Positions 760 to 14,974 of a stretch of DNA of 34,950 nucleotides are shown in pieces. Where the stretch lies: the NCBI GenBank assembly GCA_964528225.1, contig CAZGRT010000189.1:1-34950 (forward strand). Reading direction: 5' to 3'. The translations under genes and the position numbers were made by a program. Under the pieces are notes generated by a model. The model was not told the DNA's origin. It made no database searches and saw nothing but the letters and a program-made list of their open reading frames with translations. Source of the DNA: an uncultured Thermodesulfobacteriota bacterium (lineage in GTDB: Bacteria; Desulfobacterota; Deferrisomatia; Deferrisomatales; JACRMM01). Positions within the stretch are counted from its first letter, which is position 1; each line of letters starts with the position of its first letter.

Positions 760-1827
760 TCAGGTGGCCCCGGAGCACGCGTGGCCCGCTGCCCCCCGCA
801 CCGGAAGGTAGGGCCTCACCGCCAGCAGGACCAGCAACAAAGCCGACACGAGGCCAACGACCGGGGGGAACACCTCCGCGGCGGCCCCTGCCAGGGCCCG
901 TGCGGGCACGCCGAGGGCACCGTACGCCGCGTCGAGTGCGAGCCCCATGCCCACGGCGCCGATCGAGATGGAGAGAAGGTAGCGCGCGGTCGCGCCCACG
1001 CCCAGAGTTCCCGCCAGGACCGTGACCGAGGCGATGTTCGTAGCCGGACCCGCCAGCAGGAAGACCAGGGCTGCACCGGGGCTGAGTCCCTTGAGAATCA
1101 GCGCCGCCGCGATGGGCGTCGAGGCGGTCGCGCACAGGTACAGCGGAATGCCCACTACCAGCATGACCAGGAGGGGCAGGAACCCGCTGCCCAGGTTCTC
1201 CCGGACGAAGTCGGAGGGGACGAGGACCGTGATGAGCCCGGCGAGGACGAAGCCCACGGCGAGCCACGGGGCTAGGTCACCCAGAAGGTCGCCGAAAGCA
1301 TACCGGAGGCCGGCGCGGACGCGCTGCAGCGGCCTGGCTCCGGCGGGCACGGGCTCTTCGGGGCACCCGCAGGGACGGCGCGGCGGTTCCGGGAGAGGTT
1401 CCTCGCGGCCGAGGAGGTTCTCGGCCACGCCGGCGAGCACCGCGGTCGCGAAGGCAGCCAGCGGGCGCGCCACCGTCATCAACGGGTCCATGAGGGCGTA
1501 GGTCAGCGCGATGGAGTCCACCCCGGTCTCCGGCGTGGAGACGAGAAAGGAGACCGTAGCCCCCTTGCTCGCTCCCTTTCGACGAAGCCCGAGGGCGGCC
1601 GGGATCACGCCGCAGGAACAGAGGGGGAGCGGCACTCCCGCCAGGGCGGCCTTGAGGACCGAGCGCACCTTGCCCCGCCCCAGGTGCCGCCCGATCGCCT
1701 CGGCGGAGAGGAACCCGTGCAGGAGGCCTGCCGCCAGGAACCCGAAGATCAGGTACGGGGCGGAGTCGGTGAGGATGTGCCAACTCTCCCAGAGGACTGC
1801 GCCGGCGAACCCGGTCAGGTCACCCAT
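760..1827 (-). CDS. ArsP_1/DUF318-family permease (ArsP-like / SO_0444-like metal(loid) transporter)
   Basis: 355-aa polytopic membrane protein. GVPLPLCSCGVIPAALGL resembles the vicinal-Cys TPFCSCS motif of the organoarsenical permease ArsP. A second CxC lies in the central loop (RRPCGCPEE). GGAGGA precedes the ATG, and the start overlaps the arsR stop by 13 nt. Confidence 0.9.
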   Translation of the reverse strand: MGDLTGFAGAVLWESWHILTDSAPYLIFGFLAAGLLHGFLSAEAIGRHLGRGKVRSVLKAALAGVPLPLCSCGVIPAALGLRRKGASKGATVSFLVSTPETGVDSIALTYALMDPLMTVARPLAAFATAVLAGVAENLLGREEPLPEPPRRPCGCPEEPVPAGARPLQRVRAGLRYAFGDLLGDLAPWLAVGFVLAGLITVLVPSDFVRENLGSGFLPLLVMLVVGIPLYLCATASTPIAAALILKGLSPGAALVFLLAGPATNIASVTVLAGTLGVGATARYLLSISIGAVGMGLALDAAYGALGVPARALAGAAAEVFPPVVGLVSALLLVLLAVRPYLPVRGAAGHACSGAT

Positions 1828-2171
1828 CGGTCCTCCGCCACGTGCCGCAGGGCCTCGGCGAACAGCGACCTCACGTGGTCGTCGTCAAGGCTGTAGAAGG
1901 CGAGCTTGCCCTCCCGGCGACAACGCACGATCCGGTACGCCCGCAGGAGGCGCAACTGGTGGGAGACGGCGCTCGGGCTCACGTCGAAGATCTCCGCCAG
2001 GTCGCACACGCACAACTCCCGCTCCGACAGCGCCAGCAGGATCCCCACGCGCGTCGCGTCCCCCAGCACCTTGAACGTCTCCGCCACGGCACCCACCGGC
2101 GAACTGCGCACGGCGCGGCGCGCCTGTTCGACCGCTTCGGGGTGAACCAGCCTTTCCTCGCAGACCTCCAA
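1815..2171 (-). CDS. arsR: ArsR/SmtB-family metalloregulator
   Basis: 118 aa, with a TTG start 4 nt after GGAGGG. Winged-HTH signature LSERELCVCDLAEIFDVSPSAVSHQLRLLRAYRIV, including the CVC metal(loid) site. Confidence 0.9.
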   Translation of the reverse strand: MEVCEERLVHPEAVEQARRAVRSSPVGAVAETFKVLGDATRVGILLALSERELCVCDLAEIFDVSPSAVSHQLRLLRAYRIVRCRREGKLAFYSLDDDHVRSLFAEALRHVAEDRWVT

Positions 2172-2285
2172 GGCGCCCTCCTTCGAGTGAGAGTGTGCTC
2201 ATATGTTCGCAATTTCATGACCGGCCGTCAACGCCCTCGCTCTGTCTCCGCCGGAGAGGCGGTCGCGGGCGACACCGGGGGCCCG

Positions 2286-2332: not shown

Positions 2333-3403
2333 GTGGCTCGATCGGTATTGGCCCTTCCGCCGACCCCTCCCGGAGGGCCACGGGTCCGGGGCGATACGAA
2401 AGGCAAGGGCGTGGAATCGTTCATCGACGGTGCGTTGCGGCTGGGACGGGGAATCGGCGAGGAGTTTCTCTACATCCTCCCCTACCTCCTCTTCGGGGTC
2501 CTCCTCGAGGCCACCATCCGCACGCTGAAGTGGCACGTGAAGCTCCGCCACGTGCTCGGCCGCTTCGGCCCCTTCACCATCCCGGTGGCGGCGCTTCTCG
2601 GCGTGGCGAGCCCGCTGTGCGCCTGCGCCACCCTTCCGCTGGTGATCTCCCTCCTGGTAGCCGGCCTGCCCCTGGCGCCGGCCGTGACGCTGCTCGTGGC
2701 CTCGCCGCTCATGAGCCCGGCCGCCTACACGATGCTGTCCGGGATGCTCGGCCTGGGATGGGCCAACGTGGTGCTCGCCTGCGCGCTGCTCCTCTCGCTG
2801 TTCGCGGGGTACGTCACCCTGCTGCTGCGACCGTACGGGTTCCGGGAGGCGGAGATCTTCCGCAAGCAACTGCCCCAGGGGAACTTCCACGACCCGGACT
2901 ACCCGGTGGAGGAACTGCGGTGCGAGTGCGGCCGCCAGCTCTCCCATCGGGTGGACCGCTGCACCCACAACCCGGTCCTGACCTTCCTTGCGCGGGTGTG
3001 GGAGGGGAGCCTGAAGATCGGCCGCTTCACGCTCATCGGCCTGCTGATCGAGGTCGTGGCCACGACCTTCGTCCCCACCGACTGGATCATCCGACTCCTG
3101 GAGGGGGACGGCGCCTGGCCGATCTTCGCCATCACCTTCGCCACGATTCCCCTCCACCTACCCCAGGTGACCGCGGCGTCCATGGTCTTCGGCTTCTTCC
3201 TCCCCGACCCGGGCACGGCCATCCCCCTGGCCAAGGGCCCGGGCATCGCCATGCTGGTGGGCGGGCCGGTCACGGCGCTCCCGGTCATGGGCGTCTTCCT
3301 CTCCATGTTCCGGAAGCGGGTGTTCTTCCTCTACCTGGCCGTCTGCGTGGCGGGCACGCTGGCGCTGGCCCTGGGCTACCGCGCCCTCCCCTGGACCTTC
3401 TGA
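2333..3403 (+). CDS. ArsP_1/DUF318-family permease, second paralogue
   Basis: 356 aa from GTG 2333 (an alternative GTG is at 2411). GVASPLCACATLPLVISL is the family CxC position. A cytoplasmic-loop triad CECGRQLSHRVDRC is present. Divergent from arsR at 1815-2171. Confidence 0.85.
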   Translation: MARSVLALPPTPPGGPRVRGDTKGKGVESFIDGALRLGRGIGEEFLYILPYLLFGVLLEATIRTLKWHVKLRHVLGRFGPFTIPVAALLGVASPLCACATLPLVISLLVAGLPLAPAVTLLVASPLMSPAAYTMLSGMLGLGWANVVLACALLLSLFAGYVTLLLRPYGFREAEIFRKQLPQGNFHDPDYPVEELRCECGRQLSHRVDRCTHNPVLTFLARVWEGSLKIGRFTLIGLLIEVVATTFVPTDWIIRLLEGDGAWPIFAITFATIPLHLPQVTAASMVFGFFLPDPGTAIPLAKGPGIAMLVGGPVTALPVMGVFLSMFRKRVFFLYLAVCVAGTLALALGYRALPWTF

Positions 3404-3525: not shown

Positions 3526-5040
3526 ATGCGGCACGCACCCCGGCTCCTGCTCATCTTGACGGCCGCTACGGCCGCAACTCTGACGGGGTTCGTGAGCCCC
3601 TCGCCTGGCCGGGCGGCGGAGATCAGCGACGCGACGTCCGAGTGCATCGCCTGCCACGAGGAGGTCACCCCGGGCATCGTCGGCGACTGGAGGGCGAGTC
3701 GGCACTCCCGGATCACCCCGGCGGAGGCCCTGCAGAAGAAGCCCCTGGAGAAGCGCTTCTCGGCACCCGAGGCTCCGGCCGGTTCCGCCGACACGGTGGT
3801 GGGGTGCGCCGAGTGCCACACCCGAAACCCCGGCGCCCACGCGGACACCTTCGAGCACAACGGCTACCGGGTCCACATCGTGGTGACCCCGGAGGACTGC
3901 GCGGCCTGCCACCCCTCCGAGCGGGAGCAGTTCGCCCAGAATCTCATGGCCAACGCCCACGCCAACCTGGTGGACAACAGCGTCTACGGCATGCTCGTCG
4001 ACGCGGTGGCCGGCATGCACACCTTCGGCGGCGGGAAGGTCTCGACCGAGGCGCCCGATGACCTGACCAAGGCGGACGCGTGCCTGTCGTGCCACGGGAC
4101 CCGCGTCGAGGTGAAGGGCATCCGCCCCCGGGACACGGCCATGGGGGAGATGGAGTTCCCGGTGCTCGCGGGATGGCCCAACCAGGGGGTCGGCCGTGTG
4201 AACCCCGACGGCAGCAAGGGAGCCTGCACGGCCTGTCACACGCGCCACGAGTTCTCCATCGAGATGGCGCGCAAGCCCTACACCTGCGCCCAGTGCCACA
4301 AGGGACCGGATGTTCCGGCATACCCGGTGTACGCCGTGAGCAAGCACGGCAACATCTTCGATGCCATGAAGTCCCACTGGGACTTCGACGCCGTCCCATG
4401 GGTAGCCGGGAAGCACTTCACGGCGCCCACCTGCGCCACGTGCCACGTGAGCCTCGTGACCTCGACGACGGGAGAGGTCCTGGCCCAGCGATCCCACCGC
4501 ATGAACGACCGGAGCGCCTGGCGCATCTTCGGGCTCCCCTACGCCCACCCACACCCCGAGTCGGCCGACACCACCGCCATCCGGAACCGCGCGGGCCTGC
4601 CGCTCCCGACCGAGCTCACCGGAGAGCCCGTCGAGGGGTTCCTGATCGGGGCGGAGGAACAGGCCCGCCGGCGCGGGACCATGCAGAAGATCTGCCAGGG
4701 GTGCCACAGCGCCCAGTGGGTCCAGGGGCACTACGACAAGTTCGAGAACACGCTGCGAACCACCAACGCCCTGACGCTGGCCGCCACGAAGGTACTGCTC
4801 GAGGCGTGGGACCGGGGCGCTGCCCGGGGGCTCGCCGAGAACGACAGCATCTTCAACGAGACCATCGAGCAGAAGTGGGTCCAGCAGTGGCTCTTCTACG
4901 CGAACTCCACCCGGTACGCCTCCGCCATGGGAGGAGCGGACTACGGCGTGTTCGCCAACGGACGCTTCTTCCTCTCGTCGAATCTCACCGAGATGGCCGA
5001 CTGGCTGCGCCTGCTGGCCCCTCCGGCGCCGAAGCCGTGA
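3526..5040 (+). CDS. octahaem c-type cytochrome, hydroxylamine oxidoreductase (HAO) family
   Basis: ATG at 3526 follows AGGAGGA. Signal peptide [21 protein letters not shown]. Eight CxxCH motifs: CIACH, CAECH, CAACH, CLSCH, CTACH, CAQCH, CATCH, CQGCH. The block [27 protein letters not shown]...VSKHG resembles N. europaea HAO as I remember it. The upstream 332 codons of track ORF 2530..5040 overlap the permease and are rejected. Confidence 0.9.
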   Translation: [504 protein letters not shown]

Positions 5041-5071: not shown

Positions 5072-6127
5072 GTGTCGCCCAAGCGCTCCGCGAAGATCGG
5101 CCTCCCGCCCGGCACCCTCGTCCACGTGGGAGAGCCGAGCGAGGAACCGGTCGGCCTCTCGCTGATCGACTTCGGCCCCGAACACCTGGAGGAGAGGGAG
5201 CTCGGCGAACCGGACGACCTCATCCCCTACCTGCGCCCCGAGACGGTCACCTGGCTCAACGTCACCGGGGTCCACCGGGTCGAAGTGGTGGCCCGAATCG
5301 GCGAACTGCTCGGCATCCACCCCCTCGTCCAGGAGGACGTGGTCAACACCCACCAGCGGCCGAAGGCCGAGGCCTACGACGGCTATCTGTACCTCGTGGT
5401 CCGCATGATCCGCTACGACGCGGAGGCTGAGGACCTGGACACGGAGCAGGTGAGCCTGATCGTCCGCCCGGGGCTGCTCGTGACGTTCCAGGAGAAGGAA
5501 GGGGATGTCTTCGACGCCGTCCGGCAGCGCATCCGCGGGGCCAAGGGACGGCTGCGGACCTCGGGCGCCGACTACCTGGCGTACGCCCTGCTCGACAGCG
5601 TGGTCGACCACTACTTCCTGGCGCTGGAGGGGATCTGGGACACGGCGGAGGAGATCGAGGAGGAGGTGATCGACGAGCCCTCGCCCGAGACCCTGGAGAC
5701 GATCCACCGGCTCAAGAGAACGGCGGTGCAGCTGCGCCGCTCCATCTCGCCCGTGCGGGAGCTCGTCCTCGCCCTCGAGCGAGACGGCTCCGAGCTCGTG
5801 GCCTCCTCCACGCAACCGTTTCTGCGCGACCTCTACGACCACACCATCCAGGTGGTGGAGAGCCTGGAGTCGCTGCGAGACGTCATGGGCGGCTACGTGG
5901 ACCTCTACCTCTCGACCGTGAACAACCGGAAGAACCAGGTGATGAAGGTCCTCACGATCATCGCCACCGTGTTCATCCCTCTCACCTTCCTCGCCGGCAT
6001 CTACGGGATGAACTTCGAGCACATGCCCGAGCTTCGCTGGCCCTGGGCATACCCGGCCCTGCTCCTGCTCATGGGGGGGGTCGCCGGCGGCATGTTCCTG
6101 TTCTTCCGCCGGAAACGCTGGCTGTAG
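5072..6127 (+). CDS. corA: CorA-family Mg2+/Co2+ transporter
   Basis: 351 aa, with GTG at 5072 after GGGAGGA. C-terminal two TM helices carry the signature YGMNFEHMPEL (GMN motif). Confidence 0.92.
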   Translation: MSPKRSAKIGLPPGTLVHVGEPSEEPVGLSLIDFGPEHLEERELGEPDDLIPYLRPETVTWLNVTGVHRVEVVARIGELLGIHPLVQEDVVNTHQRPKAEAYDGYLYLVVRMIRYDAEAEDLDTEQVSLIVRPGLLVTFQEKEGDVFDAVRQRIRGAKGRLRTSGADYLAYALLDSVVDHYFLALEGIWDTAEEIEEEVIDEPSPETLETIHRLKRTAVQLRRSISPVRELVLALERDGSELVASSTQPFLRDLYDHTIQVVESLESLRDVMGGYVDLYLSTVNNRKNQVMKVLTIIATVFIPLTFLAGIYGMNFEHMPELRWPWAYPALLLLMGGVAGGMFLFFRRKRWL

Positions 6128-6139
6128 AACCGGCCCGCC

Positions 6140-6370
6140 TCACCGAAGCAACTTCGCGACCTCGCCGGATTTCAAGACCTTCCCAGCCGACTTGATCTGG
6201 CCATCCACCGCGAGGGCCGGGGTGACCAGGACGCCCCGCCTCATCAACTCGGCCAACTCGGTGACGTGGACGACCTCGGCTTCGACGCCCGCTTCTGCCA
6301 CCGCCTGCTTGGCAGCTTCGTAGAGCTTGTTGCACTTCGTGCAACCGGTCCCGAGCACTTCGATCTTCAT
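6140..6370 (-). CDS. small thioredoxin-family protein (redox-active disulfide protein 2 type)
   Basis: 76 aa, MKIEVLGTGCTKCNKLYEAAKQAV...LVTPALAVDGQIK. CxxC = CTKC. GGAGG RBS. Last gene of the minus-strand operon. Confidence 0.85.
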   Translation of the reverse strand: MKIEVLGTGCTKCNKLYEAAKQAVAEAGVEAEVVHVTELAELMRRGVLVTPALAVDGQIKSAGKVLKSGEVAKLLR

Positions 6371-6432
6371 GGGAAAACCTCCGCTGTCGGCGTCTGGCCG
6401 TTGGTTGCCGGGCCCGAAGGCGCGAGACCCGG

Positions 6433-6816
6433 TCAGGGGAGTCCCACCGCCCTGCGGGCGGCCTGCTGGATGAGCGCGGCGGGAATCACATCGTAGGTTC
6501 GTGGTCCGACCTCGACGGTGCGGCACGAGGCCTCCACTCCCAGCAGGGCGGTGCAGGAGCAGCAAGGGCTCTCGCCGGCACGGGCCCCCGGAATCAAGTC
6601 CTCCAGAGGTGTCCCGTTGAACCGGATCTGGTTCGACTCGGAGACGCGGTCCGCCCCGAGCACCGTCTCGGTGAACGAGACGGCCACCCCTTCGCGAGCG
6701 AGTTCCTCCTTGAGTTCGGCCACGACCTCCCGCACCGCCTGACCCGTGTCGGAGCAGCGGTCGCAGGTGCGGCCCCGGCTCTCCACGTGCCTCCACTCGA
6801 TGGCGAGCGTCTTCAT
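6433..6816 (-). CDS. DUF2703-like cysteine-rich protein
   Basis: 127 aa. N-terminal RTCDRC pair and a GESPCCSCTALLGVEASC cluster. GGGAGGAG RBS. No signal peptide. Confidence 0.8.
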   Translation of the reverse strand: MKTLAIEWRHVESRGRTCDRCSDTGQAVREVVAELKEELAREGVAVSFTETVLGADRVSESNQIRFNGTPLEDLIPGARAGESPCCSCTALLGVEASCRTVEVGPRTYDVIPAALIQQAARRAVGLP

Positions 6817-6849
6817 GGCTCCTCCCTCACGACGCCGTGGCGTCCCGGC

Positions 6850-7554
6850 TCATGCGCCGTTCCAGAGGATGAACACACCCACGAGCGCAATCAGTGCCCC
6901 GGCGGCCTTCTTGAAGACGAGGTTGGCCCTCCCGAGCTCCCGCGACTGGATCAGGTTCTTGGCAACCCCCATGCTGGTCCCGGCGACGACGATCAGGAGG
7001 CAGTGGCCCACCGCGTAGGTCCACAGGAGCGCGAGGCCGTAGGGGAGGTTCCCCTTGGAGGCGATGTAGGTGAGGACCACCACCAGGATCGGCGCGGCGC
7101 AGGGCGCCGAGACCACCCCGAAGAGGAGCCCCAGGGTGAAGGCGCCCAGCACCCCCGCGTGCCTGGGCCGGTAGCGGGCCAGCCCCTCGGGCACCGGGAA
7201 GGTCCAGAGATCCCACAGATGCGCGGCCATGGCGAAGCAGACGAGCGCGATGACCCAGGGCCAGAAGCCGCCCACGTCGCCGAAGAGCCGCCCCACCATC
7301 ACCGCGATCAGACCCATGGCCGTGAAGCTCGCGGCCAGGCCGAAGACGAAGACCAGCGAGAAGCCAAGGCTGCGCCGCCATCCGGAGATCCCCTCGTACC
7401 CGCCCACGAAGCCGATCACGAGCGGGATCATCGCGAGCACGCAGGGGTTCGAGGCGGTGAGGGCGCCGCCCACGAACACCCCGGCGAAGGCCAGCCACGG
7501 GTTGGTCTGGATGTAGCCCTGCACGTTGCCCAGGAACGCCTCGAGGCCGCCCAT
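6850..7554 (-). CDS. ccdA: cytochrome c biogenesis / thiol:disulfide electron-transfer membrane protein, CcdA/DsbD-TM family
   Basis: 234 aa, polytopic. Conserved Cys-in-TM motifs ASNPCVLAMIPLV and VVSAPCAAPILV. The start abuts the stop of the upstream permease. Confidence 0.9.
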   Translation of the reverse strand: MGGLEAFLGNVQGYIQTNPWLAFAGVFVGGALTASNPCVLAMIPLVIGFVGGYEGISGWRRSLGFSLVFVFGLAASFTAMGLIAVMVGRLFGDVGGFWPWVIALVCFAMAAHLWDLWTFPVPEGLARYRPRHAGVLGAFTLGLLFGVVSAPCAAPILVVVLTYIASKGNLPYGLALLWTYAVGHCLLIVVAGTSMGVAKNLIQSRELGRANLVFKKAAGALIALVGVFILWNGA

Positions 7555-7555
7555 G

Positions 7556-8746
7556 TCAACCTCCTGCCACGGTCAGGTGGGGGAAGAGGGCACCGAACAG
7601 CAGGCCCGCGGCCGTGGAGAGCAAGACGACGTAGAGCACGAACACCGCGGTCTTCTTCGTTCCCAGCACGCTGCGGATCACCAGCATGTTGGGCAGCGAG
7701 AGCGCCGGGCCGGCCAGCAGCAAGGCCAGAGCCGGGCCGCTGCCCATGCCGCTCCCCAGAAGCCCCTGGAGGATCGGCACCTCGGTCAGGGTGGCGAAGT
7801 ACATCAGCGCCCCGGCCACCGCGGCGAAGAGGTTGGCTCCCAGGGAGTTGCCGCCCACGAGGGTGGCCACCCAGGAGCTCGGGACGAGGCCGCGGTCGCC
7901 GCCGGGCATGCCCAGGAGGAACCCGGCGATCAGAACTCCGGCGAAGAGGAGCGGCAGGATCTGCTTGGCGAAGCCCCACGTGGACTCCACCCACTCCCGG
8001 CGCTCGTCCCGGGAGAACCAGGCCCAGACCATGGCGAGCGTCACCAGGAGGCCGGCACCCGAGAGGTGCCACTTGAGGTCGAACACGGCCATGGCCCAGC
8101 CCACGGGCTCCCTGGGCTTGCCCCAGGCCCCGAACACCAGAACCGCGACCATGGCGACCATGTACGCCGCGTTCTTCCACAAGGGCCGGGTCGGCTCCTC
8201 CACGGGAATCGCCGCGAAGCCGGCCTGCCGCTCGGCCTCCGACGCGCGGAAGGTGAAGGCCATGAGGAGCCCCACGGCGTAGGCGAAGACCACGGCGCCC
8301 AACGCCCGGGCGATGCCGAGCTCCGGGCCCAGGACCTTGGCGGTCAAGACGATGGCCAGCACGTTGATCGCGGGTCCCGAGTAGAGGAAGGCCGTGGCCG
8401 GGCCGATGCCCGCGCCCCGGCCGTAGATGCCGGCGAAGAGGGGGAGCACGGTGCACGAGCACACCGCGAGCACCGTGCCGGAGACGGAGGCCACGGTGTA
8501 GGCCACGAAGCGGTGGGCCTTCGCGCCCAGATACTGGAGCACGGCCCCCTGGCTCACGAACACGGCGATGGCCCCGGCGATGAAGAAGGCCGGCACCAGG
8601 CAGGTGAGCACGTGGGCCCGGGCGTAGTCCTGGAGCATGGCGAAGGACTCGAGGATCGCCGACTGCACCCGGGCGTGGTCCAAGGGGACGTAGTACGCGG
8701 CGAGGAAGACGCCGGCGATCAGGAAGAGCTTGTTGCGTTCGTTCAT
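7556..8746 (-). CDS. ArsP_1/DUF318-family permease, third paralogue
   Basis: 396 aa from the ATG at 8746 (MNERNKLFLIAGV...). VSGTVLAVCSCTVLPLFAGI carries the vicinal Cys motif. The upstream part of track ORF 7556..9040 is R/G-rich and overlaps the thioredoxin gene. Confidence 0.88.
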   Translation of the reverse strand: MNERNKLFLIAGVFLAAYYVPLDHARVQSAILESFAMLQDYARAHVLTCLVPAFFIAGAIAVFVSQGAVLQYLGAKAHRFVAYTVASVSGTVLAVCSCTVLPLFAGIYGRGAGIGPATAFLYSGPAINVLAIVLTAKVLGPELGIARALGAVVFAYAVGLLMAFTFRASEAERQAGFAAIPVEEPTRPLWKNAAYMVAMVAVLVFGAWGKPREPVGWAMAVFDLKWHLSGAGLLVTLAMVWAWFSRDERREWVESTWGFAKQILPLLFAGVLIAGFLLGMPGGDRGLVPSSWVATLVGGNSLGANLFAAVAGALMYFATLTEVPILQGLLGSGMGSGPALALLLAGPALSLPNMLVIRSVLGTKKTAVFVLYVVLLSTAAGLLFGALFPHLTVAGG

Positions 8747-8796
8747 GGATGGCTCCGGCCCGGAGGCTGGGAAGCGCGAAACCCGGAAACTCCGCG

Positions 8797-9174
8797 TCAC
8801 TCGATCAGGCCCAACTCCCGGGCCTTGGCCAGCATGGGGTCCTTCTTCATCTGGCCCACGTTGCGGAACACCTCCTTGCCCCGGGCGTCGAAGAAGACCA
8901 GGGTGGGAATCAGCAGGACCTTGTAGGCCTCGGCCAGGGCCTCCTCCTGGCCCACGTGCACGAACTTGAGGAGCACCCGGTCGCCGACGGCCGCCTCGAG
9001 CTCGTCCATGGTCTTCGCCTGCTCGATGCACTGCAGGCACCGGGTCATGCCGAAGTCCACGATCAGGGGCCTGCCGGCCGCCCGGGCCTCCTCGCCCCGG
9101 GGGTCGGAAGCCCGGGCGGCCGACGTCGAAAGACAGGTCGTGAGGACGAGCAGGCCGAGAATCAGTCCCTTCAT
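8797..9174 (-). CDS. exported thioredoxin-fold protein (CxxC = CLQC)
   Basis: 125 aa. Signal peptide MKGLILGLLVLTTCLSTSAARA (possible lipobox-like LTTC). PLIVDFGMTRCLQCIEQ is the active-site region. ATGA overlap with the upstream gene. Confidence 0.85.
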   Translation of the reverse strand: MKGLILGLLVLTTCLSTSAARASDPRGEEARAAGRPLIVDFGMTRCLQCIEQAKTMDELEAAVGDRVLLKFVHVGQEEALAEAYKVLLIPTLVFFDARGKEVFRNVGQMKKDPMLAKARELGLIE

Positions 9175-9605
9175 CGCAAGCCCATCCTCTCGAGGACCGC
9201 GACCACGTCGGTCTCGGGGAGGTATCCCTCGTGGCGAAAGAACTCGCTGCCGTCGGGCCGGAGGAATACCTGGGTCGGGATCAGCCGAACCCGGTACTCC
9301 CCGGCCTTCGCGGGGTCCCGGCGCACGTCGTGGAAGATCACCTCCACCCGGCCGGGGAAGCGCTCCCGGACCGCCTCCATCACCGGCACCATGGCCTCGC
9401 AGGGCTTGCAGCCCACGCTGCCGAGTTCGAGGAAGGTGACCTTCTCGCCGGCCGCGAGGGGCTGGGCTGCCGCGGTCGGCAGGGCCTCGCTGGAGGGCTC
9501 GGCCGCGAGGTCCAGTCCGTAGAGGGCGACGGCGGCGGTGAGCGCGGCGGCCCCGGCCAGGAAGAGGAAAGGGACGAGGAACCTGCGCCGTGACTTCTCG
9601 ATCAC
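9171..9605 (-). CDS. membrane-anchored thioredoxin-fold protein, TlpA/ResA-like (CxxC = CKPC)
   Basis: GTG at 9605 overlaps the upstream stop (GTGA) and follows GGAGGG. N-terminal anchor RRRFLVPFLFLAGAAALTAAVALYG, then VTFLELGSVGCKPCEAMVP. Confidence 0.8.
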   Translation of the reverse strand: MIEKSRRRFLVPFLFLAGAAALTAAVALYGLDLAAEPSSEALPTAAAQPLAAGEKVTFLELGSVGCKPCEAMVPVMEAVRERFPGRVEVIFHDVRRDPAKAGEYRVRLIPTQVFLRPDGSEFFRHEGYLPETDVVAVLERMGLR

Positions 9606-9997
9606 TTCGTCCCTCCGGCGAGGTGGGCCTCCCACGCCTGGTAGAAGTCCCGTTCGGCGAAGAACCCGTCGAAGCGGGCCACCCGGCGGCCCCGGCCGTC
9701 GAGCAGGAAGACCACCGGCACGGCCAGGATGCCCAGTTCCCTGGCCGCCTTGGGGGTCGCCTTGAGGTCGATGGTCTCGCGCCGGAACCCCCACGGGTTG
9801 CCGGCGAGGAAGTTCACAACCTCCTGCTCCCCGGCCACGCAGAGGCTCGCCTCGCAGTCGCACGCATCGCTCTTGGTGACGAAGACCAGGGTAGGGGAGG
9901 CCCCTTCGGGGAGCCCGGCCCGAGCCGAGGTCCCGAGGAAAAGGAAGAGGAGTAGGAGGGCGAGAACGCCTCCGCCCATGCTGTGACGATGGGGCAT
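9602..9997 (-). CDS. exported thioredoxin-fold-like protein with a CxCx4C triad instead of CxxC
   Basis: ATG at 9997 after GGAGGAGGAG. Signal-like GGGVLALLLLFLFLGTSARA. TLVFVTKSDACDCEASLCVAG occupies the position where a Trx CxxC would sit. A ...LAVPVVFLLDG... strand is typical of the fold. First gene of the operon. Confidence 0.7.
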   Translation of the reverse strand: MPHRHSMGGGVLALLLLFLFLGTSARAGLPEGASPTLVFVTKSDACDCEASLCVAGEQEVVNFLAGNPWGFRRETIDLKATPKAARELGILAVPVVFLLDGRGRRVARFDGFFAERDFYQAWEAHLAGGTK

Positions 9998-10112
9998 CCG
10001 GGCAACTCCTCCTCCGGCAGGACCCCGAGAACGAGCACTCCCCGGGATCATTTCCGCGCAGACCAGGAGCTTACGCCCACGCATTCCCCTATGGCAAGCG
10101 CATTAATCGTTT

Positions 10113-10130
10113 TTCGACGATGTTGTCGAA
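10113..10130. promoter_or_regulatory. perfect inverted repeat TTCGAC-N6-GTCGAA, candidate ArsR operator in the divergent promoter region
   Basis: Lies in the relatively AT-rich 176-nt gap between the Trx/permease operon (start 9997, minus) and arsR-arsC-acr3 (start 10174, plus). Overlaps a possible -35 (TTGTCG) for the TATTTT -10 at 10144-10149. Confidence 0.45.
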
Positions 10131-10173
10131 TTGCACATGTCCATATTTTCCTTTCTATTAGGAGTTGACCTAC

Positions 10174-10575
10174 ATGTCGGCTGCTGGCAAGATCGCTCTG
10201 TGTCGTTTTTCGATTCCGGAGGCCGCCGTGGAACTGCTGATCGCACTGAAAGCCTTGGCCGACGAGTCGCGCCTGCGGATCGTCTGGATGCTGGAGCAGC
10301 GGCCCCTGTGCGCCTGCGAGATCCAGGCAGTGCTCGGCCTGGCCCAGTCCACCGTGTCCCGACACCTGCAGATCCTGGAGGACGCCGGCTTCGTCGCCTC
10401 GGAGCGCGTCGGCCCGTGGAAGAACTACCGACTCCACCCGGTTCCGGCGCCCGCGGTCCAGGGACTGCTCGCCCAGGCGAGGCTGGCCGCTGCCGGGACC
10501 GGGGAAGCCAGCCAGGTCCGCGAGGCGGCCCGGCAGGCCTGCCGGGAAGACCTGTGCGGGAAGAGCGCGGCCTGA
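10174..10575 (+). CDS. arsR: ArsR-family arsenic-responsive repressor
   Basis: ATG at 10174 lies 9 nt after AGGAG (the track gives TTG 10165). LKALADESRLRIVWMLEQRPLCACEIQAVLGLAQSTVSRHLQIL includes a CAC site. Two more Cys lie near the C-terminus. Confidence 0.9.
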   Translation: MSAAGKIALCRFSIPEAAVELLIALKALADESRLRIVWMLEQRPLCACEIQAVLGLAQSTVSRHLQILEDAGFVASERVGPWKNYRLHPVPAPAVQGLLAQARLAAAGTGEASQVREAARQACREDLCGKSAA

Positions 10576-10582
10576 GGAGCCC

Positions 10583-11020
10583 GTGAAACGGCGCACTCTC
10601 TTCCTCTGCACCGGCAACTCGTGCCGAAGCCAGATGGCCGAGGGGTGGCTGCGCCATCTCGGGGGCGACCGGTACGAAGCGCTCTCCGCCGGGACCCGGC
10701 CCCACGGGGTCAACCCGCTGGCCTGCCGTTCCATGGCCGAGGTCGGGGTGGACCTCTCGGGACAACGCTCCAAGTCGGTGGACGAGTTCCTCGGCGAGAA
10801 TCTGGACCTGCTCGTCACGGTGTGCGGCGGGGCAGAGGAGTCGTGCCCGGTGTTCCGCGGCCGGGTGAAGGAGCGCCGGCACTGGCCCTTCGACGACCCG
10901 GCGGAGGCGGGGGGCACGGAGGACGAAAGGATGTCGGTGTTCCGCCGTGTGCGGGACGAGATCCGCGACGCCGTGGAGGGCCTGCTGCGCGAAGACGGCA
11001 CACCGCGGGGCGGCCTCTGA
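10583..11020 (+). CDS. arsC: arsenate reductase, LMW-PTP / thioredoxin-coupled type
   Basis: 145 aa. P-loop [16 protein letters not shown] (CX5R) plus the downstream Cys pair [10 protein letters not shown], typical of Trx-coupled ArsC. Confidence 0.92.
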
Positions 11021-11051
11021 GCCCCGTTCGCTGACGCACGAGGAGGTGGCC

Positions 11052-12122
11052 ATGTCCGGCGTCGCCCGAAGACTCTCGTTTCTCGACCGCTACCTGACGC
11101 TCTGGATCTTCCTGGCGATGGCGGCGGGGGTCCTGGGGGGCTGGGCCTTCCCCGACGTGAAGGACGTGATCAACGTCTTCCAGGTCGGCACGACGAACAT
11201 CCCCATCGCCGCCGGCCTGATCCTGATGATGTACCCGCCTCTGGCCAAGGTGAAGTACGAGGAACTGCCCCGGGTCTTCCGGAACCTGCGCGTCCTCGCC
11301 CTCTCCCTGGTGCAGAACTGGGTGGTGGGCCCGGTCCTCATGTTCCTCCTCGCGATCACGATGCTCGGCGGCTACCACGAGTACATGGTTGGGCTGATCC
11401 TGATCGGCCTGGCCCGTTGCATCGCCATGGTGATCGTGTGGAACGACCTCGCGAAGGGCGATACCGAGTACTGCGCGGGGCTGGTGGCGTTCAACTCGAT
11501 CTTTCAGGTGCTCTTCTTCTCCGTGTACGCGTGGTTCTTCATCACGTGGCTCCCCCCGAAGCTCGGCGTCGCCGGTGCCACGGTCGACATCACGATCGGC
11601 CAGATCGCGGAGAGCGTCTTCATCTATCTGGGAGTCCCCTTCCTCGGCGGCATGATCTCCCGGTTCGTGGGTCTCAAGACCAAGGGTCGCCAGTGGTACG
11701 AGACCAGGTTCATCCCCCGGGTGGGTCCGATCACACTGATCGCCCTCCTGTTCACGATCCTCGTGATGTTCAGCCTCAAGGGCGAGTACATCGTGCAGTT
11801 GCCGATGGACGTGGTCCGGATCGCGGTGCCCCTGACGATCTACTTCCTGGTCATGTTCTTCGTGTCCTTCTGGATGAGCCGCAAGGTGGGGGCGACCTAC
11901 GGCCAGACCGCCACGCTGTCCTTCACCGCGGCCTCGAACAACTTCGAGCTCGCCATCGCCGTCGCCGTCGCCGTGTTCGGGATCGACTCCGGTGAGGCCT
12001 TCGCCGCGGTCATCGGGCCGCTGGTCGAGGTGCCCGTGCTGATCGGCCTGGTCAACGTGGCGCTCCGGCTGCAGAGGAGGCACTTCTCCCCCGGCGTGGC
12101 CTCCGGGGCCGCCCGGGCCTGA
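11052..12122 (+). CDS. acr3: arsenite efflux transporter, ACR3 family
   Basis: ATG at 11052 after [33 protein letters not shown]...[22 protein letters not shown] is typical of ACR3. 356 aa, polytopic. Confidence 0.93.
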
Positions 12123-12195: not shown

Positions 12196-12228
12196 TTGGT
12201 CCCGGACGCCCGACGTCGTATCCTGAGG
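12196..12228 (+). promoter_or_regulatory. putative promoter TTGGTC-17 nt-TATCCT carrying the second copy of the 17-mer GACGTCGTATCCTGAGG
   Basis: -35 at 12196-12201, -10 at 12219-12224, 17-mer at 12212-12228. This argues against the track start (TTG 12196) for the binding-protein gene. Confidence 0.45.
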
Positions 12229-12258
12229 CGTCGTGCCCCCTGCAGACCGGAGCCTCCG

Positions 12259-13107
12259 GTGGCCGCACCCCGATGGTTGGCCCGCATCCTGGCCCTCACG
12301 GCCGCCCTCGTCGTGCAGCCGGCCGCCGCACGGGCGGCTCCGCGCTCCCTCGAGGTGTTCGCGGGTTCGGCCTCGAAACCCGCCGTCCAGGAGCTCGCCG
12401 CAGCCTTCGAGCAGCGCGCCGGCATCCGGGTGCACGTCCACTTCGGCGGGTCCGGCGCCGTGCTCTCCCAGATGCAGCTCGCCCGGAGGGGCGACGTCTA
12501 CCTCCCCGGCTCCTCCGACTTCATGGAGCTCGCCAAGCGCCGCGCGCTGGTGGATCCCCTGACGGAGGTGCGGTTGTTCTACCTGGTGCCCGCCATCGCC
12601 GTGGCCCGCGGGAACCCCGAGGGGATCCGGTCCCTCGAAGACCTGGCGCGGCCGGGGCTTCGGGTCGGGATCGCCCGCCCCGAGACGGTGTGCGTCGGCC
12701 TCTACGGAGTCGAGGCCCTGGAGCGCAGCGGGCTGGCGGAGCGCGTGCGGCCCAACATCGTCAACTGGGCGGAGTCCTGCGAGAAGACCGCGCAGATGCT
12801 CGCTCTGGGCCTGGTAGACGCCGTACTGGGCTGGGACGTGTTCGACGACTGGGACCCGGCCCGCATCGAGACCGTGCCGTACCCGCCGGAGAGGGTGCCC
12901 CGGATCGGATACGCGCCGGCCGCGGTCTCGGTCTTCGCGCGGGAGCCGGACCTCTCCCGGCAGTTCCTCGCCTTCCTCTCCGGGCCGGAAGGCCGGGAGG
13001 CGTTTCGCCGCCACGGCTACCTGGCGGTCCTCGAGGATGCCAGGGCTCTCGCGCGCCCGGACACGCCGGTGGGCGGGGAGTTCCCGCTTCCCGGGGGATG
13101 GAGATGA
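12259..13107 (+). CDS. periplasmic substrate-binding protein of a molybdate/tungstate-type (ModA/WtpA-like) oxyanion ABC transporter
   Basis: GTG at 12259 lies 6 nt after GGAG. Signal peptide AAPRWLARILALTAALVVQPAAARA. LEVFAGSASKPAVQELAAAFEQRAGIRVHVHFGGSGAVLSQM...GDVYLPGSSDFM matches the PBP2 ModA-like pattern. The track ORF begins at 12196. Confidence 0.8.
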   Translation: MAAPRWLARILALTAALVVQPAAARAAPRSLEVFAGSASKPAVQELAAAFEQRAGIRVHVHFGGSGAVLSQMQLARRGDVYLPGSSDFMELAKRRALVDPLTEVRLFYLVPAIAVARGNPEGIRSLEDLARPGLRVGIARPETVCVGLYGVEALERSGLAERVRPNIVNWAESCEKTAQMLALGLVDAVLGWDVFDDWDPARIETVPYPPERVPRIGYAPAAVSVFAREPDLSRQFLAFLSGPEGREAFRRHGYLAVLEDARALARPDTPVGGEFPLPGGWR

Positions 13108-13886
13108 GCCTGCGCCGGGGCGCGTTCTCGGCCGTTCTCGGGGCCGCCGTGCTCGCTGCCCTGGCCGTGGTGGGCACGATCCTCTTCTCCCAGTTGGGCC
13201 AGACCGGCCTCCAGGGGCCCTTCGGGGCGCTCGCCCAGCCGCAGATCCGGCGGGCGGTCCTGCTGAGCCTCGGCACGTCGACGTTCGCCTCCGTGCTGGC
13301 CCTGCTCCTGGCCGTGCCGGCCGCCTACGGCCTGGCGAGGTCCCGTTTCCCCGGGTCCGCCGCCCTCGACGTGGTCCTGGACCTCCCCATCGTCCTTTCC
13401 CCGGTGGCCCTGGGCGTCTCCTGGCTGCTGTTCTTCGGCACCCCCTCCGGGCGGTGGATCGAGACGCACCTCCTGCGCTTCGTCTTCGAGGTGCCGGGCA
13501 TCGTACTTGCCCAGTTCACCGTGGCCCTGGCCCTCTCCATCCGGGTGCTCAAGGCCTCCTTCCAGGCCGTGGACGTGCGCTACGAACAGGTGGCCCGCTT
13601 CCTCGGATGCACCCCTGCCGGGGCTTTTCGCCGCGTGACCCTCCCGATGGCGCGCCGAGGGCTCCTCGCCGCGTTCATCCTGGGCTGGGCGCGGTCGGTG
13701 GGGGAGTTCGGGGCCACGGTGACCCTGGCCGGAGCGGTTCCGGGCAAGACCGAGACCATCCCCGTGGCCATCTACCTGCGGCTCGCGTCGGCGGACATCC
13801 CGGGGGCGGTGGCCTTGATCCTGCTGCTCTCGGGCACCGGCCTGCTCGCCCTGGCGGCGGTGCGACTCCTCGGGGAGGCGCGGTGA
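13098..13886 (+). CDS. ABC transporter permease, ModB/CysTW-like
   Basis: ATG at 13098, or ATG at 13104 which makes an ATGA overlap with the upstream stop. The WARSVGEFGATVTLAGAVPGKTETIPVAIY loop is typical of ModB-type permeases. Confidence 0.88.
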   Translation: MEMSLRRGAFSAVLGAAVLAALAVVGTILFSQLGQTGLQGPFGALAQPQIRRAVLLSLGTSTFASVLALLLAVPAAYGLARSRFPGSAALDVVLDLPIVLSPVALGVSWLLFFGTPSGRWIETHLLRFVFEVPGIVLAQFTVALALSIRVLKASFQAVDVRYEQVARFLGCTPAGAFRRVTLPMARRGLLAAFILGWARSVGEFGATVTLAGAVPGKTETIPVAIYLRLASADIPGAVALILLLSGTGLLALAAVRLLGEAR

Positions 13887-14974
13887 TCCGCTGCGAAGGA
13901 CTCTGCGTCCGCTTCGGCTCCTTCCGGCTGGAAGAAGTCGACCTCGCGGTGGAGGCGGGGGAGAGCTTCTTCGTCCTCGGGCCGTCCGGTGCCGGCAAGA
14001 CCCTGCTTCTCGAATCGCTGCTGGGCGTGCGGCCCCTGGAGAGCGGCCGCGTGCTCCTGGACGGCCGGGACGCGACCCGCCTGCCGCCGGAGGCCCGCAA
14101 CGTGGCGTACGTGCCGCAGGACCTGGCCCTCTTCCCCCACCTCTCGGTGCGCGAGAACGTACTCTTCGGGCTCCGGGCCCGGGGACTGAGCCCGCCGGAC
14201 CTCTCCGAGCGCCTCTCCCGTTGGGTGGAGCTGCTCAACCTCTCCCCGGTGATCGACCGACGAGACACCGCCACCCTGTCGGGGGGGGAGCGCCAGCGGG
14301 TGGCTCTCGCCCGGGCCCTGGTGACCGAGCCCCGGGTGCTCTTCATGGACGAGCCCTTCTCGGCCCTGGACGCATCGCTGCGCCGGCGCCTCCAGCTCGA
14401 ATTCCGGGAGCTTCAGCGCCGCCTGGGCCTGACCCTGGTCCAGGTGACCCACGACCCGGAGGAGGCCTTCCTCATGGCCGACCGCATGGCGATCCTCATG
14501 GGGGGGCGGATCGAGCAGACGGGGCGGCCGGCCGCCTTGTACAACCGCCCCGCCACCCTCCGGGTCGCGCGGTTCCTGATGCTGCAGAACCTCTACCCCG
14601 CCCGGGTGGGCTCGAGGACGGAGGAAGGCCGGCGCCGCCTCGAGGTCGAGGGCGGAGGAGTCTCGTTCGAGGCCGTGGCGTCGGAGGAATTCCCGCAGGG
14701 CAGCCGCGTCACGGTCGGCATCCGGCCCGAGGAGGTGATCCTCGTCCGGCCGGACCGGGAGCCGGACGACCCTCGGCGCCCGAACCTGCACCGGGGGACC
14801 GTGGAAAGCTGGGTGGACCTCGGGCATTACCGCCTGGTGCGACTTAGCCTCGGCGACCTGGCCCTGGACGCCTGGCTCAACATCCGGGCGGCCCGGGAGT
14901 ATCCGATGGAGGCGGGGGCACAGGTCTGGTTCCACGTGCGGCCCGGGAGCCTGTGCCTCCTGCCGCCGGAGTGA
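13883..14974 (+). CDS. ABC transporter ATP-binding protein with C-terminal TOBE-like domain (ModC/WtpC-like)
   Basis: GTG at 13883 overlaps the upstream stop (GTGA) after GGGGAGG. Walker A GPSGAGKT, signature LSGGERQRVALARAL, Walker B VLFMDEP, H-loop VTHD. About 120-aa C-terminal beta-rich domain. Confidence 0.9.
   Translation: MIRCEGLCVRFGSFRLEEVDLAVEAGESFFVLGPSGAGKTLLLESLLGVRPLESGRVLLDGRDATRLPPEARNVAYVPQDLALFPHLSVRENVLFGLRARGLSPPDLSERLSRWVELLNLSPVIDRRDTATLSGGERQRVALARALVTEPRVLFMDEPFSALDASLRRRLQLEFRELQRRLGLTLVQVTHDPEEAFLMADRMAILMGGRIEQTGRPAALYNRPATLRVARFLMLQNLYPARVGSRTEEGRRRLEVEGGGVSFEAVASEEFPQGSRVTVGIRPEEVILVRPDREPDDPRRPNLHRGTVESWVDLGHYRLVRLSLGDLALDAWLNIRAAREYPMEAGAQVWFHVRPGSLCLLPPE

Follow-up and report, generated by a model that had tools for sequence, protein, structure and literature searches.

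Seven consecutive minus-strand genes, here called g1 to g7 (9997-6140), lie next to arsR, arsC and acr3 in the 34,950-nt stretch of DNA analyzed in this study (hereafter the window), which comes from contig CAZGRT010000189.1 of an uncultured Thermodesulfobacteriota bacterium. On balance our analysis tips slightly toward the view that the products of these genes would function as an arsenical-responsive efflux and periplasmic thiol-reduction module. The observed basis for this proposal is the gene content of the block, the domain identities and predicted topology of its products, its operon-like packing, and the conservation of the module together with its linkage to ars genes. At least 14 Deferrisomatales-type loci contain the cluster and 80 loci of several phyla its core, a recurrence beyond chance, and the g1-g7 block is the enlarged form, specific to one lineage, of an ars-associated module that was already known but is uncharacterized. 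The new pieces are a family of CxCx4C proteins, the ArsR/ArsP_1 (non-cytochrome) context of a clade of CcdA proteins, and a candidate operator.

The sequence and its list of open reading frames (ORFs) indicate that the seven genes are packed like an operon. From g1 to g7, successive junctions measure -4 (GTGA), -4 (ATGA), 50, 1, 33 and 62 nt, a GGAG-type Shine-Dalgarno sequence stands upstream of every start codon, and the coding strand of the block showed no terminator-like site. Domains were assigned by scanning the products of g1-g7 and of the ars genes with Pfam and NCBIfam models, and topology by Kyte-Doolittle hydropathy. By these measures g1, g2 and g3, each with an N-terminal hydrophobic segment, are predicted to be exported or membrane-anchored, g4 and g5 to be membrane proteins, and g6 and g7, with zero hydrophobic segments, to be cytoplasmic. 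The following cysteine motifs are present: CDCEASLC (g1), CKPC (g2), CLQC (g3), VCSC (g4), CCSC (g6) and CTKC (g7). The ArsP_1, DsbD_TM, DUF2703 and Thioredoxin_3 models are all matched, by g4, g5, g6 and g7, respectively. The initial annotation of this DNA had described seven packed minus-strand genes with this inventory, these motifs and three exported, two membrane and two cytoplasmic products. The coordinates, junctions and Shine-Dalgarno sequences bear out the packing and, because the domain matches and hydropathy agree, the inventory, motifs and predicted locations are correct as well.

The ars genes are transcribed away from the block on the other side of a common control region (9998-10164). 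The first of them, arsR (10165-10575, plus strand), encodes an ArsR/SmtB metalloregulator with an HTH_5 domain (NCBIfam NF033788, 84.8 bits with a cut-off of 55) and a Cys-x-Cys pair, C49-A-C51 in PLCACEI, in what we take to be the place of the CVC motif that senses As(III). It is followed by arsC (10583-11020, plus strand), an arsenate reductase of the low-molecular-weight phosphatase type (Pfam LMWPc) with Cys9, Cys81 and Cys88, whose best model is the thioredoxin-coupled (pI258-type) TIGR02691 at 158.6 bits, just under the cut-off of 174.3, versus 91 bits for the glutaredoxin type, and by acr3 (11049-12122, plus strand), an arsenite efflux transporter (TIGR00832, 451 bits with a cut-off of 282.8). 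The association with ars genes that had been noted at the outset is well supported: the block and arsR-arsC-acr3 are arranged divergently not only in the window but also in most of its close relatives, namely in all Deferrisomatales-type loci with enough sequence except two (L008 and L016).

The control region itself required more revision. It had been given as 176 nt, a length that holds to the next ATG but shrinks to 167 nt when measured to the TTG start of arsR. It had also been said to contain a perfect palindrome, a claim that we downgraded because a custom scan gave arms of only 5-6 nt; an inverted-repeat search of the region with seed 6 and length 10 returned none. No uninterrupted palindrome was found, only TTCGAC-N6-GTCGAA at 10113-10130, with 6-nt arms, which by itself is at about chance level for such a region. 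Overlapping it is a second inverted repeat, ATCG-N8-CGAT (10106-10121), that has no other match in the window and only 34 matches in 1.34 Mb of loci. This repeat is conserved next to arsR in 14 related loci; the 136-aa-type arsR of L001-L007 and L010-L015 has it at its 5' end, and because its position is conserved while the surrounding intergenic sequence has diverged it is the best operator candidate and probably the site bound by ArsR. In L008, L012, L013, L015 and L002 a second ArsR of 103-104 aa (ECVCRI) is encoded directly upstream of g1, and between this gene and g1 lies a short inverted repeat, ATAAC-N6/7-GTTAT, that suggests a second operator type.

The proposed relay centers on g5 (6850-7554, minus strand), a 234-aa CcdA-type membrane thiol-disulfide conduit (Pfam DsbD_TM, 72.8 bits) with six transmembrane (TM) segments and two Pro-Cys motifs, at C38 and C152, in which the cysteines are invariant in our alignment (A2). 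Proteins of the CcdA family shuttle reducing equivalents outward, from a thioredoxin in the cytoplasm to thioredoxin-like proteins that have been exported, and if g5 follows its family in the direction of electron flow, candidate partners on both sides of the membrane are encoded in its own operon. On the outside these are g2 and g3. The former (9171-9605, minus strand; 144 aa; CKPC) is a membrane-anchored or exported thioredoxin (Pfam Thioredoxin, 28.6 bits) with a hydrophobic segment at residues 10-28 behind KSRRR. It is of the kind that adjoins this CcdA clade across phyla, and orthologues of the CIPC type are encoded directly upstream of CcdA in many of them. Its paralogue g3 (8797-9174, minus strand; 125 aa; CLQC; 30% identity) is an exported thioredoxin (Pfam Thioredoxin_2, 37.1 bits) with a signal-like N-terminus that ends in an Ala-x-Ala-type cleavage site, between SAARA and S. 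The N-terminus of g2, SRRRFLV, resembles a twin-arginine (Tat) signal and may be only the positively charged flank of the anchor; we dropped the idea that g2 is a Tat substrate because the twin-arginine is missing in orthologues from other phyla. On the inside, g7 (6140-6370, minus strand) is a 76-aa cytoplasmic Thioredoxin_3 protein of the MTH895/ArsE family with the active site C10-T-K-C13 (Pfam Thioredoxin_3, 90.1 bits; TIGR00412, 94.1 bits with a cut-off of 62). We infer that it is probably the electron donor to CcdA.

NCBIfam ties two families to arsenical resistance, the Thioredoxin_3 family "MTH895/ArsE" and the DsbD-like permease ArsG, and the block could be read as an ArsEFG-like organoarsenical system in which small thioredoxins modify an aromatic or methylated trivalent arsenical and the CcdA homologue is a permease like ArsG. 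We consider this improbable. The match of g7 to the ArsE-family model supports it by naming only, and g5 does align with the ArsG model (NF040495) over its full length, albeit weakly (29.7 bits, E = 3.9e-7). However, this score is far under the ArsG cut-off of 200, and the DsbD model gives g5 a higher one (67 bits). Both statements also hold for members of the CcdA clade in other phyla, whose ArsG scores are 35.7-37.7 bits. Moreover, g5 retains both of the Pro-Cys motifs of CcdA/DsbD proteins, it is flanked by exported thioredoxins, which are natural CcdA clients, and the operon already contains a separate ArsP_1 permease. A plasmid search with CcdA for annotated ArsG neighbors returned distant CcdAs only, at <36% identity.

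Databases annotate g5 as "cytochrome c biogenesis CcdA family protein", and if this name were apt the block would serve ordinary cytochrome c maturation, with CcdA and ResA-like thioredoxins reducing apocytochrome CxxCH motifs in a bacterium that has many multihaem cytochromes, and with the ars genes adjacent by coincidence. A gene for an eight-haem cytochrome 1.1 kb from the end of the cluster, and ResB and CcsA encoded directly after a variant cluster in L004, are in keeping with this idea. A wider survey of the CcdA clade argues strongly against it. An alignment of 16 g5 relatives was used as the query against a species-representative genome collection, yielding 80 loci whose ORFs were annotated by phmmer with the window proteins as queries; 47 of these loci have at least 4 kb on both sides of CcdA (full context), and partner genes were counted within 8 kb. 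Relatives of g5 are very many, up to ~86% identical in Deferrisoma and ~50-59% in other phyla, and the 80 loci span Thermodesulfobacteriota, Gemmatimonadota, WOR-3, Aminicenantes, Myxococcota, Rokubacteria and others. In the full-context set, Thioredoxin_3 is found near CcdA in 46/47 loci, ArsR in 41, an ArsP_1 permease in 38 and an exported CxxC thioredoxin in 26. Typical orders are ArsR, ArsP_1, Thioredoxin_3, Trx, CcdA, Acr3 or, mostly in Myxococcota, ArsR, ArsP_1, Thioredoxin_3, CcdA. The association with ResB/CcsA expected of system II occurs in none of the 47 loci, with L004 the sole case overall, and the ars context of the CcdA clade is kept across several phyla. The initial annotation had named assignment of the cluster to ResA/CcdA cytochrome c maturation as grounds for abandoning its proposal; because 0/47 full-context loci contain ResB/CcsA, that function is not supported and we regard it as very unlikely.

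A survey of gene neighborhoods had been called for, and it revealed that the core of the block recurs beside ars genes, while the seven-gene order is lineage-specific. All seven genes are found in L001, where they too diverge from arsR-arsC-acr3. L006 resembles it, except that a PhdYeFM/PIN toxin-antitoxin pair (8430-9073) takes the place of DUF2703 between CcdA and Thioredoxin_3. L007 adds a second small ArsR ahead of g1, and L008 carries an ArsR of its own as well as additional thioredoxins and a Redoxin but lacks DUF2703 and arsC-acr3. L004 has a reduced cluster, consisting of g1, TauE, CcdA and Thioredoxin_3, after which come the ResB and CcsA genes mentioned above. The cultured Deferrisoma camini S3R1, at ~2.63 Mb of JAFN01000001.1, has the order g1-like (ACPCQLSLC), Trx, TauE, CcdA, Thioredoxin_3, FmdE, ArsP_1, divergent from arsR-arsC-acr3-arsD-arsA, and in D. 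palaeochoriense the order is g1-like, Trx, TauE, Trx, ArsP_1, CcdA, Thioredoxin_3. The constant parts are thus the g1-type protein, the g2-type thioredoxin, a permease, CcdA and Thioredoxin_3, with DUF2703 and g3 dispensable. Because gene content varies in this way among relatives and cultured species, the seven-gene order represents one variant of the module. In L001/L010, a 284-kb contig of a metagenome-assembled genome, the ArsP_1 gene (~11190-12495 in L001) is broken into several ORF fragments and acr3 is interrupted likewise; frameshift errors in the assembly could account for this, or the genes could be true pseudogenes. Two CMAS/SAM-methyltransferase genes follow arsA in D. camini (L089, 1642-2883). 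They could be arsenite methyltransferase-like and, if so, would link the ArsP_1 module to methylated arsenicals.

The permease of the block, g4 (7556-8746, minus strand), is a 396-aa ArsP_1-family protein (PF03773, 253 bits with a cut-off of 32.3, covering profile positions 3-293 of 294) with at least eight hydrophobic segments and a membrane-embedded vicinal cysteine pair, C96-S-C98 in LAVCSCTVLPLF. The corresponding CxC-x3-P motif is kept in 75/77 ArsP_1 ORFs of the surveyed loci. An exact-sequence look-up of the g4 permease gave no match. ArsP is characterized by efflux of MAs(III) and Rox(III) but not of inorganic As(III), and g4 may act likewise.

Several observations weigh against a role in arsenic defense. 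Acr3 or ArsC is found within 8 kb of CcdA in only 24/47 full-context loci. TauE-family proteins replace or accompany ArsP_1 in some relatives, and g4 itself reaches ~103 bits against the NCBIfam models for SO_0444 Cu/Zn efflux and for SaoE, which are ArsP_1-family transporters. In some relatives the cluster is joined by genes for a cysteine desulfurase, a PF04060 Fe-S protein, a cation diffusion facilitator (CDF) transporter or a rhodanese, which hint at sulfur or other-metal chemistry. A sigma-70-type promoter scan of the control region called no promoter; a candidate picked out by hand, TCGACA-N16-ATTAAT, whose spacer contains the operator, is no more than a suggestion. The absence of an ArsD match to g1, described below, belongs on the same side. 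Most of these points, together with a Redoxin gene among related loci, fit an alternative in which the module answers a different thiophilic stress, such as Sb(III), Cu(I), Cd, Hg, tellurite/selenite or reactive sulfur, and adjoins ars genes through a shared type of ArsR/SmtB regulator and shared thiol chemistry. We judge this alternative unlikely, though it deserves to be taken seriously. The SO_0444 and SaoE models have cut-offs of 300 and 325, far above what g4 scores. A CxC pair, as is typical of As(III)/Sb(III) sensors, is present in ArsRs of both types, Deferrisomatales-type loci with enough sequence, L008 and L016 excepted, are divergent from arsR-arsC-acr3, and D. camini has added arsD and arsA to the divergent operon.

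The cysteine desulfurase and PF04060 genes often form part of a longer conserved stretch. After Thioredoxin_3 in many relatives come a conserved 47-aa ORF, a cysteine desulfurase (Aminotran_5) and a PF04060 "FeS" protein (L007, 10892-12814; L008, 8487-10412; L090, 10213-12353; also L011 and L013), and in Aminicenantes-type loci (L047, L050) PF04060 genes lie inside the module. The 47-aa ORF, the cysteine desulfurase and the PF04060 gene are all absent from the window.

The most distinctive member of the block is its first gene, g1 (9602-9997, minus strand), which encodes a 131-aa exported protein with an N-terminal hydrophobic segment followed by an Ala-x-Ala-type cleavage site, between TSARA and G. 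It matches no family in Pfam or NCBIfam, yet several lines of evidence assign it a thioredoxin fold. An AlphaFold2 model (pLDDT 84) has the beta-alpha-beta-alpha-beta-beta-alpha topology and cis-proline (P94) of thioredoxins; nearly all of its top 50 Foldseek matches are thioredoxins or thioredoxin-fold domains (E ~1e-5, target-normalized TM-score up to 0.88), and a profile of the g1 family matches thioredoxins in the Protein Data Bank (PDB) at E = 8e-4. In place of the canonical CxxC, the active-site position is occupied by C46-D-C48-x4-C53, and these three cysteines and P94 are invariant in our family alignment (A1, 17 sequences). A collection of 5.8 billion proteins contains 45 relatives of g1, all at least 50% identical and several labelled Deferrisomatales, and the family profile detects 131 clusters among 1.84 billion representative proteins at E-values up to 1e-3. 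Because it comprises 131 clusters, with a CxC at the active-site position in 68 of the 129 sequences inspected (mostly as CxCx4C), we view g1 as a member of a small, uncatalogued family. This predicted family of exported, thioredoxin-fold CxCx4C proteins without a Pfam model is a new element of the module. In loci that lack a g2-type thioredoxin, CcdA is often followed directly by a CxC lipoprotein, F[VI]xKxxAC[DE]CT[RK], with a thioredoxin-like domain and no Pfam match; it is a distant relative of g1 in which the CxC is kept and the third cysteine is not. The Myxococcota type of this lipoprotein is encoded just after CcdA in L040, L045, L051, L056, L060, L061, L065, L073, L080, L083, L086 and L088.

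ArsD, a protein with a thioredoxin fold, binds As(III) at Cys12-Cys13-x4-Cys18, and the As(III) site of R773 ArsR is Cys32-x-Cys34-x2-Cys37. Because its three invariant cysteines resemble these three-sulfur sites, g1 may bind As(III). Kinship with ArsD was rejected for both g1 and the DUF2703 protein at the level of sequence, as neither matches Pfam ArsD (PF06953) at E-values up to 10; fold searches gave it no support, and ArsD is absent from the top 50 structural matches of g1. A bolder proposal is that g1 and its relatives, as exported thioredoxin-fold proteins that bind arsenic, make up a new class, the periplasmic equivalent of ArsD. They would be kept reduced by the dedicated, arsenite-inducible relay and loaded by thiol exchange with the Cys-x-Cys site of the ArsP_1 permease. 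We hold this proposal to be doubtful. If such a hand-off does take place, arsenic would leave the cell along a thiol route provided by the operon, which would also shield envelope thiols, those of apocytochromes among them.

Returning to the arsenical-responsive module that we favor, we envision a scenario in which As(III) binds the Cys-x-Cys site of ArsR, which would then leave ATCG-N8-CGAT and allow both divergent operons to be expressed. ArsC would reduce arsenate and Acr3 export arsenite, while the ArsP_1 permease could export a trivalent (organo)arsenical by way of its membrane-embedded Cys-Ser-Cys pair. Electrons would pass from the g7 Thioredoxin_3 protein to CcdA, across the membrane and on to g2 and g3. 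These two would maintain the envelope thiols, those of g1 among them, in the reduced state during the discharge of arsenite into the periplasm. The three-cysteine site of g1 could bind As(III) and thereby act as a periplasmic sink or chaperone. The initial annotation had raised two further roles. Periplasmic As(V) reduction finds no supporting component in g1-g7, and transfer of thiol-bound metalloid, which draws some support from the CxCx4C motif of g1, is at present speculation.

The remaining member of the block, g6 (6433-6816, minus strand), is a 127-aa cytoplasmic DUF2703 protein (PF10865, 115 bits with a cut-off of 23.6, full length) that we regard as an accessory member and that would act as an optional cysteine-rich cytoplasmic component. 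The CCSC motif highlighted earlier is present, but only g6 and its closest relatives have C86; the conserved DUF2703 cysteines are C18-x2-C21, C85-x2-C88 and C98 (alignment A3). A search of the PDB with its AlphaFold2 model (pLDDT 95.9) returned no significant structural match, and DUF2703 has no relative of solved structure. DUF2703 is present in 4/80 surveyed loci and missing from many related clusters. A DUF2703 gene in the ars cluster of Rhodococcus aetherivorans BCP1 is induced by As(V) (PMC6514093).

The window, with a G+C content of ~70%, appears to be of Deferrisomatales origin. Outside the ars region it carries ordinary chromosomal genes (dnaJ, a TRAP transporter, lactate-utilization genes, a DEAD-box helicase and malic enzyme), and an Rfam scan of the window identified zero RNA families. 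Directly after acr3 and on the same strand lie genes for an ABC transporter (12196-14974), which encode a binding protein (ModA-like, SBP_bac_11), a permease and a TOBE-domain ATPase; L001 has the same arrangement. These genes may or may not be part of the ars transcript, and the transporter may carry molybdate, tungstate or a different oxyanion. At the other end, a CorA-family transporter gene (5072-6127) ends 12 nt from the convergent end of g7, and the exported multihaem cytochrome with eight CxxCH motifs (3526-5040) lies between the two ArsR units of the window. The arrangement of cytochrome and CorA genes is kept in L001. The second of these units comprises an ArsR-type regulator (1815-2198, minus strand) between two more ArsP_1 paralogues (760-1827, minus strand, and 2333-3403, plus strand), so that the window holds in total three ArsP_1 genes and two ArsRs within 10 kb; this unit recurs in L001 and L009.

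Accounts of arsenic resistance usually center on reduction in the cytoplasm and subsequent efflux, and how the periplasm is protected once arsenite has been pumped into it has received little attention. The question is of greatest relevance in anaerobes with many apocytochrome CxxCH thiols to keep reduced. A conserved ArsR-linked module of the kind described here would point to an envelope arm of arsenic defense, made up of a cysteine-bearing permease and a private CcdA relay, with the addition of a three-cysteine exported protein in some lineages. The module is present in many uncultured phyla and also in the cultured D. camini, and the idea is therefore testable. Our findings also call for a correction to current annotation, since the members of this CcdA clade are named for cytochrome c biogenesis while their genomic context says otherwise.

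It is instructive to compare the block with systems described previously. Eight instances of the same family set, drawn from SEED, were noted by Castillo and Saier in 2010, along with many ArsP homologues in ars operons; a function was only guessed at, namely help for cytoplasmic ArsC (Castillo and Saier 2010). The block shares with that module a DsbD_TM/CcdA protein, an exported thioredoxin, a Thioredoxin_3/TIGR00412 protein and an ArsP_1 permease, families that occur in clusters headed by ArsR and accompanied by arsC and acr3. By contrast, the CxCx4C protein, DUF2703, the duplicated exported thioredoxins and the divergent seven-gene architecture are not described there. Literature searches for expression or experimental data on the module found nothing later than this paper. 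The initial annotation had presented the set as a module with no characterized function, and indeed we found no experimental work on it, but the core is widespread and was noted in 2010, and it is no unrecognized one-off.

The relay resembles CcdA-ResA/StoA of Bacillus subtilis and DsbD of Escherichia coli in its six-TM CcdA with two Pro-Cys motifs, its exported CxxC thioredoxins and the cytoplasmic thioredoxin that is the presumed donor. It differs from them in lacking a ResB/CcsA or Ccm partner and in having its own mini-thioredoxin donor, a linkage to ArsR and a permease, and an extra CxCx4C client. ArsEFG reportedly confers resistance to roxarsone and nitarsone, and in Shewanella putrefaciens 200 is said to do so through reduction of the nitro group and efflux of aromatic arsenicals. 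As in that system, an arsenic island carries the genes for both a Thioredoxin_3-family protein and a membrane protein of the DsbD_TM family, but g5 is not an ArsG equivalog.

ArsP of Campylobacter jejuni exports methylarsenite, MAs(III), and the trivalent form of roxarsone (Chen et al. 2015, summarized in PMC6205960). The resemblance of g4 to this protein, a comparison based on family membership, motif and context, lies in the ArsP_1 domain, the membrane Cys-x-Cys pair and the ars-operon setting. Unlike g4, however, the C. jejuni protein works without a thioredoxin and CcdA set, and the window holds three ArsP_1 paralogues of a family that includes transporters named for other substrates. Finally, ArsD is a cytoplasmic protein whose partner is ArsA, whereas g1 is exported, and the resemblance between the two is an analogy. 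Yet both combine a thioredoxin fold with a cluster of three cysteines, which in g1 are invariant and located at the active-site position, an arrangement that would suit the coordination of As(III) by three sulfurs.

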